Source: Escherichia coli O157:H7 (GTDB taxonomy: Bacteria > Pseudomonadota > Gammaproteobacteria > Enterobacterales > Enterobacteriaceae). From it: 64,000 bases of DNA. Of this stretch, positions 48-38,364 are shown piece after piece. The stretch lies in the NCBI RefSeq assembly GCF_013167455.1, contig NZ_CP038328.1, one strand, 5' to 3'. A program made the position numbers and the translations under genes. Each line of letters starts with the position of its first letter. The stretch's first letter is position 1. The notes beneath the pieces are model-generated. The model worked only from the letters and a program-made list of their open reading frames with translations, had not been told where the DNA came from and ran no database searches.

Positions 48-227
48 TGCGAAAATCCCCTTAAAATGTGTCGAATTTTTTGAAAAAGCGATAAACGATA
101 CCACCATCAGGCGATTGCCTCAAGAAAGGCACCAGGGGCTGAAACGGTTAATGGCGAGATAATTTGCGGAAAGTGCAGATAATGAAAAGAAAAATGCCGG
201 ATGACACGAAGGTCATCCGGCATTACA

Positions 228-3198: not shown

Positions 3199-5130
3199 TC
3201 AAATGGGGCGGATACTGTCTTCATCCAGCTCCGCATCGAAGAACCGACGCAGGGTCTGAATATTATTATCCGCAATAATGGACTCGCGCGCCTGCGCAAG
3301 TTTTTCTTCGTATATCGCCTGACGCCACTCCAGCGGCGTACGCACCGCGGGATTATCATCTTCAACTATAGTCAGTTCAACCGTTGAACCTTTTAACATG
3401 CTCAACGCTTCAGCCAGTTTTTGCTGTGCACCGCGGTTGTTCAAATGCCGCTGAGAGGAGCGCAAATGCAGACATACTGCGTTGTCGCTCTCCTCTTTCC
3501 AGGCATTTAACGCCACCTGTTCGACCAGTTTTGGTAGCGAAAGTTGACTCACCTGAGCCGCCCACGCGTCGCGCTCAATGGCTTCTGCCGCCAGCTTCGC
3601 CGCCAGTTCCGGCGTTTTTTCATGTTCCAGCGCTTTTTTCAGCGCCTTCGGTGTGGCGACCACTTCTTTTTGCTGCATCACTGGAGTGGTCGCCTTCCAG
3701 CGATACGCTTCTTTTTTAGCTGGCGCTTTTTCCAGCGCCGATGGCACCGGACGCGCCTGAACGCGATCGGTGACCGAAGCCAGTCTTTCCAGCGCAGCGT
3801 TATTCACCGGCCGCGCGCGGGTAGCGGCTGCCGGTTCACTCTTTTTTGCTTTGGTTGCTCCCTGCACGCGCTGCAACTGCTGGCGCGCCGCCAGCACCTG
3901 GCTGGTGGTTTCCGGGAGCGGTACAGTCGGTGCCTGCTGCGGCGCTGATTGCGGTTGCGGCGGCACCTGGGTTGGCGTCATTACTGCCGTTGGCGCGACG
4001 GGTGCAAAGGACTGGCGTGGCACTTCTGGCTCAGGCAGCGGCATACGCGGATGGAACGCCAGCGCGCGCAGCAGCGTCATCTCAACGCCCATGCGGCGGT
4101 CCGGCGCATACGGTAATTCTTTGCGACCAATCAACAGCGTCTGATAGTAAAGCTGAATATCCGTCGGCGGTATGGTGCGCGCCAGTTCACGCATCCGCAG
4201 CTCGATGGCGGCCATGTCGTTGCCAAGTGCAGCAGGCGAAAGTTGTACCATCGCAATACGATGCAACAGGCCGAGCATTTCCACCAGCAACGCTTCCCAC
4301 TCGATACCACGGGCAGCGGCTTCATTAATCAGCGCCATTACGCGCTCGCCGTTGGCCTCGACCATCGCTTCAACCAGCGACAGCGCCTGATCGTCGTCAA
4401 GCGTACCCAGCATCGCACTGACCGCCTGGGTTGAAACCTGGCCGTCACCGCTGGCAATCGCCTGGTCGGTCAGACTTAAGGCATCTCGCAGGCTGCCTTC
4501 AGCGGCGCGCGCCAGCAATTGCAGCGCCCGCGGCTCGTGAGCGATATGTTCTTCATTGAGGATGTGCTCAAGTTGATGACGAATTTGCTCGACATCCAGC
4601 GCCTTGAGATGAAATTGCAAACAGCGCGACAAAATCGTCACCGGCAATTTCTGTGGATCGGTCGTCGCCAGCAGAAACTTAACGTGCTCCGGCGGCTCTT
4701 CAAGGGTTTTTAACAGTGCGTTAAAGCTGTGGCGCGACAGCATATGCACTTCGTCGATGAGATAAACTTTGAAACGACCACGCGCCGGAGCGTACTGGAC
4801 GTTATCCAGCAGGTCGCGGGTATCTTCAACTTTGGTGCGCGAGGCGGCGTCGATTTCAATCAGATCGACAAAGCGCCCCTGCTCGATTTCACGACAGTTA
4901 TCGCACACGCCGCACGGCGTCGCGGTAATGCCGGTTTCGCAGTTTAGCCCCTTCGCCAGCAGTCGGGCGATAGAGGTTTTTCCGACGCCACGGGTGCCGG
5001 AAAAAAGATAAGCATGATGAATACGCCCTAACGACAAGCCGTTCGCCAGTGCGGTCAGCACATGTTCCTGGCCGACGACGTCAGCAAAGGTTTGTGGGCG
5101 CCATTTTCGGGCTAAGACCTGATAACTCAT
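3199..5130 (-). CDS. dnaX: DNA polymerase III subunits tau/gamma, 643 aa (tau)
   Basis: MSYQVLARKWRPQTFADVVGQEHV..., AAA+ Walker motifs; internal frameshift site present. Confidence 0.97.
   Translation of the reverse strand: MSYQVLARKWRPQTFADVVGQEHVLTALANGLSLGRIHHAYLFSGTRGVGKTSIARLLAKGLNCETGITATPCGVCDNCREIEQGRFVDLIEIDAASRTKVEDTRDLLDNVQYAPARGRFKVYLIDEVHMLSRHSFNALLKTLEEPPEHVKFLLATTDPQKLPVTILSRCLQFHLKALDVEQIRHQLEHILNEEHIAHEPRALQLLARAAEGSLRDALSLTDQAIASGDGQVSTQAVSAMLGTLDDDQALSLVEAMVEANGERVMALINEAAARGIEWEALLVEMLGLLHRIAMVQLSPAALGNDMAAIELRMRELARTIPPTDIQLYYQTLLIGRKELPYAPDRRMGVEMTLLRALAFHPRMPLPEPEVPRQSFAPVAPTAVMTPTQVPPQPQSAPQQAPTVPLPETTSQVLAARQQLQRVQGATKAKKSEPAAATRARPVNNAALERLASVTDRVQARPVPSALEKAPAKKEAYRWKATTPVMQQKEVVATPKALKKALEHEKTPELAAKLAAEAIERDAWAAQVSQLSLPKLVEQVALNAWKEESDNAVCLHLRSSQRHLNNRGAQQKLAEALSMLKGSTVELTIVEDDNPAVRTPLEWRQAIYEEKLAQARESIIADNNIQTLRRFFDAELDEDSIRPI
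3841..3847 (-). promoter_or_regulatory. dnaX programmed -1 ribosomal frameshift heptamer A-AAA-AAG (codons 429-430), giving gamma ending ..KKE-stop
   Basis: Plus strand CTTTTTT at 3841-3847; minus-strand reading GCA AAA AAG AGT GAA gives AKKSE, and the -1 frame gives GAG TGA; GC-rich hairpin just downstream on the minus strand (about 3808-3838). Confidence 0.85.
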
Positions 5131-20490: not shown

Positions 20491-20604
20491 GGGTGGGGGC
20501 CCTGCCAGCTACATCCCGGCACACGCGTCATCTGCCTTGGCTGCTTCCTTCCGGACCTGACCTGGTAAACAGAGTAGCGTTGCGGGAGAACCAACAGAGC
20601 CCCC
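20491..20604 (-). ncRNA. ffs: 4.5S RNA (signal recognition particle RNA), 114 nt
   Basis: Minus-strand sequence begins GGGGGCTCTGTTGGTTCTCCCGCAACGCTACTCTGTTTACCAGGTCAGGTCCGGAAGGAAGCAGCCAAGGCAGATGACGCGTGTGCCGGGATGTAGCTGGCAGGGCCCCCACCC; lies between ybaA and atl as in E. coli; terminator hairpin and A-run on plus strand at about 20461-20490. Confidence 0.93.
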
Positions 20605-38177: not shown

Positions 38178-38260
38178 AGAGCTCTCTCTTAGTTTAATTT
38201 CCGCCAGGTAATCAGATGACACGACTGTGCTTCACGCCATCTATTAACATGTACGTCAGT

Positions 38261-38289
38261 ATATGGGGATGTTTCCCCCACATTCAACG
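38261..38289 (-). promoter_or_regulatory. sigma32-type promoter upstream of lon (-35 TTGAATG, -10 CCCCATAT on minus strand)
   Basis: Minus-strand GTTGAATGTGGGGGAAACATCCCCATAT about 85-110 nt upstream of the lon start; clpX terminator hairpin GGGGAG..TCCCCC nearby at about 38312-38331. Confidence 0.6.
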
Positions 38290-38364
38290 CCGAGAATAGA
38301 GGAAAAATTAAAGGGGAGATAAAATCCCCCCTTTTTGGTTAACTAATTGTATGGGAATGGTTAA

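Follow-up and report, generated by a model that had tools for sequence, protein, structure and literature searches.

The frameshift element of dnaX sets the ratio of tau to gamma in the clamp loader of DNA polymerase III, a role that has been known since 1990. In E. coli, 50% of ribosomes shift within dnaX and terminate one codon later; the natural shift site, A_AAA_AAG, is decoded by a single tRNA-Lys (mnm5s2UUU) that reads both AAA and AAG, and the shift is stimulated by a 5' Shine-Dalgarno (SD) sequence, AGGGAG, that pairs with 16S rRNA and by a 3' stem-loop (PMC5009743). Frameshift efficiency is given as 50-80% in a second study, where about 60% of ribosomes shift in vitro, compared to about 25% without the hairpin and at most 5% with non-slippery codons; in that work the hairpin slows translocation and hinders binding of tRNA to the A site, and the linker AGUGA is named as the segment between heptamer and hairpin (PMC7282821).

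We examined the corresponding locus in a 64,000-nt stretch of E. coli O157:H7 DNA, referred to here as the window. The site is almost certainly the canonical programmed -1 ribosomal frameshift site of E. coli dnaX, where frameshifting itself is known from the literature. The element is already known, intact, and ordinary, and it presents no anomaly. Our own analysis covers the presence, phase, spacing, and integrity of three elements (an internal SD, a slippery heptamer, and a hairpin), the -1 stop, the identity with K-12, and the conservation and covariation of the hairpin; the occurrence of frameshifting, its efficiency of ~50-80%, and its kinetic mechanism are taken from the published work. 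The coordinates of the features are collected in Table 1.

Table 1. Features of the dnaX frameshift site, in window coordinates.
Feature	Position	Strand	Details
dnaX zero-frame ORF, tau, 643 aa	3199..5130	minus	ORF list and translation
Gamma coding span	3836..5130	minus	Frame 0 through codon 430; after the -1 slip at the heptamer, GAG and UGA
Whole cassette, match to Rfam RF00382	3802..3866	minus	Model positions 1-65 of 65
Internal Shine-Dalgarno-like AGGGAG, 5' stimulator	3858..3863	minus	Rfam model positions 4-9
Slippery heptamer A AAA AAG	3841..3847	minus	Lys429-Lys430 in frame 0; Rfam model positions 20-26
-1 frame UGA stop	3836..3838	minus	One codon past the slip; also within the 5-nt linker AGUGA
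3' stimulatory hairpin, 11 bp	3806..3835	minus	5' arm 3835..3824, loop UACCC 3823..3819, 3' arm 3818..3806
Further AAAAAAG copies in dnaX	3717..3711 and 3639..3633	minus	Downstream of the real site; offset 0, phase AAA AAA G

The mechanical list of open reading frames contains a single long minus-strand ORF here, 5130..3199, whose translation is the DnaX/tau protein, and the RefSeq record of O157:H7 annotates this ORF as dnaX. The dnaX allele differs from that of K-12 MG1655 at 19 of 1932 nt (99% identity), the differences being silent or missense, and just two of them change the protein (A522P and D638E), both in the C-terminal part that is found only in tau. The slippery heptamer lies about two-thirds of the way into the gene, at codons 429-430 of 643; its first A, at gene position 1284, is the last base of codon 428 (offset 2). 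We read both strands of the window between 3600 and 4050, and the minus strand runs ...GUGCAGGGAGCAACCAAAGCAAAAAAGAGUGAACCGGCAGCCGCUACCCGCGCGCGGCCGGUGAAUAAC... through the site. In the zero frame, the codons at the heptamer are GCA AAA AAG AGU GAA; this puts the heptamer in the X XXY YYZ phase that tandem -1 slippage needs. Translation from 3847 in the -1 frame gives AAA AAA GAG UGA, or K K E followed by the stop at 3838..3836. The predicted frameshift product is therefore 431 aa long and its translated C-terminus is RVQGATKAKKE; the span that encodes it, 5130..3836, measures 1295 nt, equal to the curated two-piece gamma CDS of K-12 MG1655 (492092..493386).

Downstream of the heptamer, at a distance of 5 nt (AGUGA), the RNA can form a hairpin with the sequence CCGGCAGCCGC-UACCC-GCGCGCGGCCGG, which together with a closing A-U pair spans 3835..3806. 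The lower stem is 6 bp long (ACCGGC/GCCGGU); the upper stem, of 5 bp, contains a single bulged C (3815) and is capped by a 5-nt loop. One A/G mismatch leaves A 3829 and G 3812 unpaired. When the 32-nt stretch 3836..3805 was folded, the minimum free energy was -19.1 kcal/mol, with the hairpin accounting for 91% of the ensemble, and only 2 of 200 shuffles of this stretch folded equally well (z = -2.47). On the other side of the heptamer, AGGGAG is separated from it by a 10-nt spacer (3857..3848). This internal SD sits 8 nt beyond the interval 3790-3850 to which a sequence-only reading of the window had assigned a cassette of two parts, heptamer and hairpin. Both parts are there, unmutated, on the minus strand inside that interval, but the cassette has three elements and the upstream one had been omitted.

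The whole cassette, 3866..3802, matches RF00382 (DnaX ribosomal frameshifting element) over the full length of the model, scoring 96.8 bits where the gathering score is 35 (E = 5.8e-20). The consensus structure fits it without any pair being flagged as non-canonical. Those defining features of the family that can be read in silico are all found here: the score, the location in dnaX, the phase of the heptamer, the -1 stop, the spacing of the SD, and a stem-loop that covaries. The 65-nt element is base-for-base the same as that of K-12 MG1655. The RefSeq O157:H7 record also carries a 'DnaX frameshifting element' feature at the same position. Taken together, these data bear out the sequence-only reading in describing an intact, textbook dnaX -1 frameshift cassette, with a GAG TGA stop directly after the heptamer, a 3' stem-loop that folds stably, and no difference from the K-12 element.

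The same reading had held that a caller of single ORFs would report only tau. This is right for the mechanical ORF list, where the 643-aa ORF stands by itself, yet the annotation pipeline PGAP does flag the site: it gives one CDS, 'subunit gamma/tau', and also marks the element as a sequence feature. Gamma has a two-piece CDS of its own only in the curated K-12 record and not in the PGAP annotation. The recoding site that a naive ORF caller misses is thus present and intact, and it serves as a positive control, as had been proposed when it was called an internal check of the reading frame: the minus-strand dnaX frame is right, and the window is ordinary E. coli chromosomal DNA of the O157:H7 type.

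We looked at how widely the site is kept within the species. Of 5426 complete E. coli genomes, 5424 contain one copy of a 261-nt query around it, which is 100% identical to O157:H7, and among the matches listed the query always falls under 'dnaX' and 'DnaX frameshifting element'. The 65-nt element was found in 5423 of these 5426 genomes, with at least 99% identity in 5372 and 95-99% in 51. In 5405 complete genomes, the segment from SD to stop is matched exactly by a word of 28 nt or more, and the hairpin segment has a match in 5396, of which 5390 are at least 99% identical. Two of the roughly 5,420 matches in the search for the dnaX site lie on records labelled as plasmids, and in 2-3 complete genomes the site has no match; these are probably mislabelled or unusual assemblies.

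Separately, we observed a 60-nt in-frame deletion in the dnaX gene of E. coli O157:H7 strain Z1833 (L003), which leaves a tau of 623 aa. The deleted segment is equivalent to window positions ~3744-3803; it starts directly 3' of the hairpin and lies between two short CCGGTG repeats. The SD, the heptamer, and the hairpin are all untouched.

To reach beyond E. coli, species-representative genomes were scanned with the pattern AGGGAG-N(9-11)-AAAAAAGAGTGA, of which the hairpin is not a part. The scan returned at least 120 loci, a sample of the taxonomic range. Among the matches listed, at least 51 loci are dnaX sites of Enterobacterales, representing 42 distinct sequences from Escherichia, Citrobacter, Enterobacter, Klebsiella, Kluyvera, Pluralibacter, Serratia, Pantoea, Mixta, Buttiauxella, and Cedecea. 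At least about 45 loci from Collinsella (e.g. L004, L005, L017-L019, L040, and L044) were rejected as dnaX sites. In these, AGGGAG-N10-AAAAAAGAGTGA is the start of a gene, an SD followed by GTG CCA AAA AAG AGT GAG AGC ACG..., and it is kept in many species. The scattered single matches in other phyla fit chance and were left out of the alignment along with the Collinsella loci.

In an alignment of the window with the 42 Enterobacterales sequences, 87.7% of stem cells pair under the Rfam structure, compared to 28-52% in a control in which the 3' partner was slid by 1-3 columns. Both sides have changed in 5 of the 11 stem pairs. The closing A-U pair is replaced by G-C in 11 sequences, the G-C pair at columns 36-57 by A-U in one, from Mixta, and the G-C pair at columns 42-50 by A-U in Enterobacter sp. 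ENT03; the position of the bulge has moved in Pseudescherichia and in Escherichia sp. ESNIH1. All of these are clear compensatory changes. The observed covariation score was reached by none of 500 shuffles, a count that does not amount to a probability since the shuffles ignore relatedness. Conservation of the heptamer and GAGUGA in the 42-sequence set follows by construction from the search pattern, as does that of the SD, so that the invariance of AGGGAG across species is not evidence. The region is also coding sequence for tau in frame 0, which accounts for part of its sequence conservation. Read from the alignment, the compensatory pair changes indicate selection on RNA pairing and not on the protein alone.

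All of the hairpin variants follow the same 5-nt linker and have folding energies between -19 and -21.5 kcal/mol, and their upper stems are of two types. In the E. coli/Citrobacter type, to which the window belongs, the helix has 5 bp, a bulged C, and a loop of 5 nt (GCCGC/GCG(C)GC); in the Enterobacter/Serratia/Pantoea type there are 4 bp (GCGC/GCGC) with a loop of 5-8 nt, which written out is GCGC/CAGGAAGA/GCGC. We tried a single structure of the second class for the whole alignment, and it fit no better than the Rfam structure; because the upper stem is of two types, neither single structure describes all of the species. It seems unlikely that the two forms set lineage-specific tau:gamma ratios as opposed to being neutral isoenergetic alternatives, and to this question the window itself adds nothing new.

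The site of Candidatus Pantoea persica (L016:2970-3036) keeps the SD, the heptamer, and GAG UGA, and it is missing the 3' arm of the canonical hairpin. An alternative fold is predicted at -22.7 kcal/mol, which is not better than shuffles (z -0.8).

Several of our measurements could be taken to mean that the heptamer and the hairpin play no part in recoding and are incidental to coding the linker of tau, which is rich in Lys, Pro, Ala, and Arg. The window has no excess of AAAAAAG (21 copies observed vs 15.1 +/- 4.3 expected), making the bare heptamer nothing unusual; two other copies lie within dnaX itself; and the 76-nt context of the site is no more stable than GC-rich, GC-matched shuffles (z = -0.86). 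We did not use the heptamer count or the stability of the 76-nt context as arguments: the case is built on the phase, the -1 stop, the fold of the isolated hairpin, and the covariance-model score. The two other copies in dnaX were rejected as frameshift sites, as they are in the wrong phase and have no SD or hairpin context; only the copy at 3847..3841 combines the A AAA AAG phase with a -1 stop one codon on, an SD 10 nt upstream, and a stable hairpin that starts after 5 nt. The chance reading was dropped because the elements occur in combination far beyond chance, as the RF00382 score reflects. Selection on RNA pairing, as indicated by the compensatory changes between species, also speaks against incidental coding. 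Moreover, the sequence is that of the K-12 element, whose frameshifting has been measured in experiments (PMC5009743, PMC7282821), and published mutagenesis already refutes incidental coding for that identical K-12 sequence. We therefore give this explanation next to no credence, and the canonical programmed frameshift site remains our reading of the locus.

Following the published kinetics, ribosomes on dnaX mRNA would arrive at Lys429-Lys430, A AAA AAG, with AGGGAG, 10 nt upstream, predicted to pair with the 3' end of 16S rRNA. The 11-bp hairpin, 5 nt downstream, would then be positioned at the mRNA entry channel, where it would slow translocation and the binding of tRNA to the A site. The single tRNA-Lys should pair with AAA at least as well as with AAG, so that about half of the ribosomes would re-pair one base back; no tRNA gene lies within the 64-kb window. 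For slipped ribosomes, the next codons would be GAG (Glu) and UGA, at which the 431-aa gamma would be released, and unslipped ribosomes would stay in frame and complete the 643-aa tau.

Slippage could also be placed one step earlier, with RNA polymerase slipping on the run of A residues, the way in which gamma is made from dnaX in Thermus thermophilus (PMC5009743); the site here does hold a run of A6. Bacterial cases of transcriptional slippage, however, are on runs of 9 A or T (PMC5009743). The conserved SD and hairpin, at ribosome-scale spacing, are translational stimulators, and a defined mRNA translated in vitro shifts at ~60% (PMC7282821). These points make transcriptional slippage a highly improbable source of gamma at this site. 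That gamma is instead cut from tau by proteolysis, as it is in Caulobacter crescentus (PMC5009743), and that the cassette is vestigial is scarcely credible, given a cassette at least 99% identical in more than 99% of E. coli genomes and covarying between species, which is a poor fit to a vestige, and given published work that ascribes E. coli gamma to the frameshift (PMC5009743).

The surroundings of dnaX are those of an O157:H7 chromosome. The window (1-64000) is the reverse complement of an O157:H7-type segment that extends from ribH/nusB to htpG/adk, and it is collinear, in reversed orientation, with O157:H7 PV15-279 (NZ_AP018488.1), with 10 mismatches in 49,905 aligned nt; positions were mapped as window x = 556395 - NZ_AP018488.1 coordinate. 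Between htpG and adk, just past the htpG terminator hairpin, the window has a 26-nt segment at ~155-180 (minus strand ATCTGCACTTTCCGCAAATTATCTCG) that is absent in PV15-279. Two RNA genes were picked up by Rfam models: the bacterial small SRP RNA (ffs/4.5S) at 20500-20596 on the minus strand (68.1 bits), with ffs at the matching place in the O157:H7 record, and the sRNA sraA at 38249-38344 on the plus strand (106.7 bits, where the gathering score is 56), which by mapping is intergenic between clpX and lon. Between pgpA and yajO, at window ~60009-61580 on the plus strand (mapped from NZ_AP018488.1 494815-496386), the O157:H7 record annotates espY3, which encodes a T3SS effector (a pentapeptide-repeat protein); the neighbouring genes are housekeeping ones, and espY3 was probably inserted among them in a strain-specific manner.

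The closest known system is the dnaX element of K-12, the founding example of RF00382, which has the same SD, 10-nt spacer, heptamer, AGUGA linker, and 11-bp hairpin, the same codon numbers (Lys429-Lys430), and the same 431-aa and 643-aa products. There is no difference inside the element, whereas the dnaX allele that surrounds it here is of the O157:H7 type. With Enterobacter, Serratia, Pantoea, Buttiauxella, and others, the window has in common the SD, the spacing, the heptamer, GAG UGA, and the 6-bp lower stem CCGGC/GCCGG; the stability of the hairpin in these other Enterobacterales is similar, but the upper stem is different (4-bp GCGC/GCGC vs 5-bp). More distant dnaX genes arrive at the same outcome, tau and a C-terminally truncated gamma at about 1:1, through transcriptional slippage in Thermus thermophilus and proteolysis in Caulobacter (PMC5009743); in contrast to the site described here, both do so without a ribosomal slip and do not use the cassette of SD, heptamer, and hairpin. 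Finally, the orfA-orfB sites of IS3-family elements such as IS911 resemble the dnaX site in having a heptamer of the A AAA AAG type, in many cases flanked by an SD upstream and a structure downstream (PMC5009743). In those elements the shift occurs at lower efficiency and extends the protein into a second ORF to give a transposase fusion, whereas the shift in dnaX truncates the protein one codon later.
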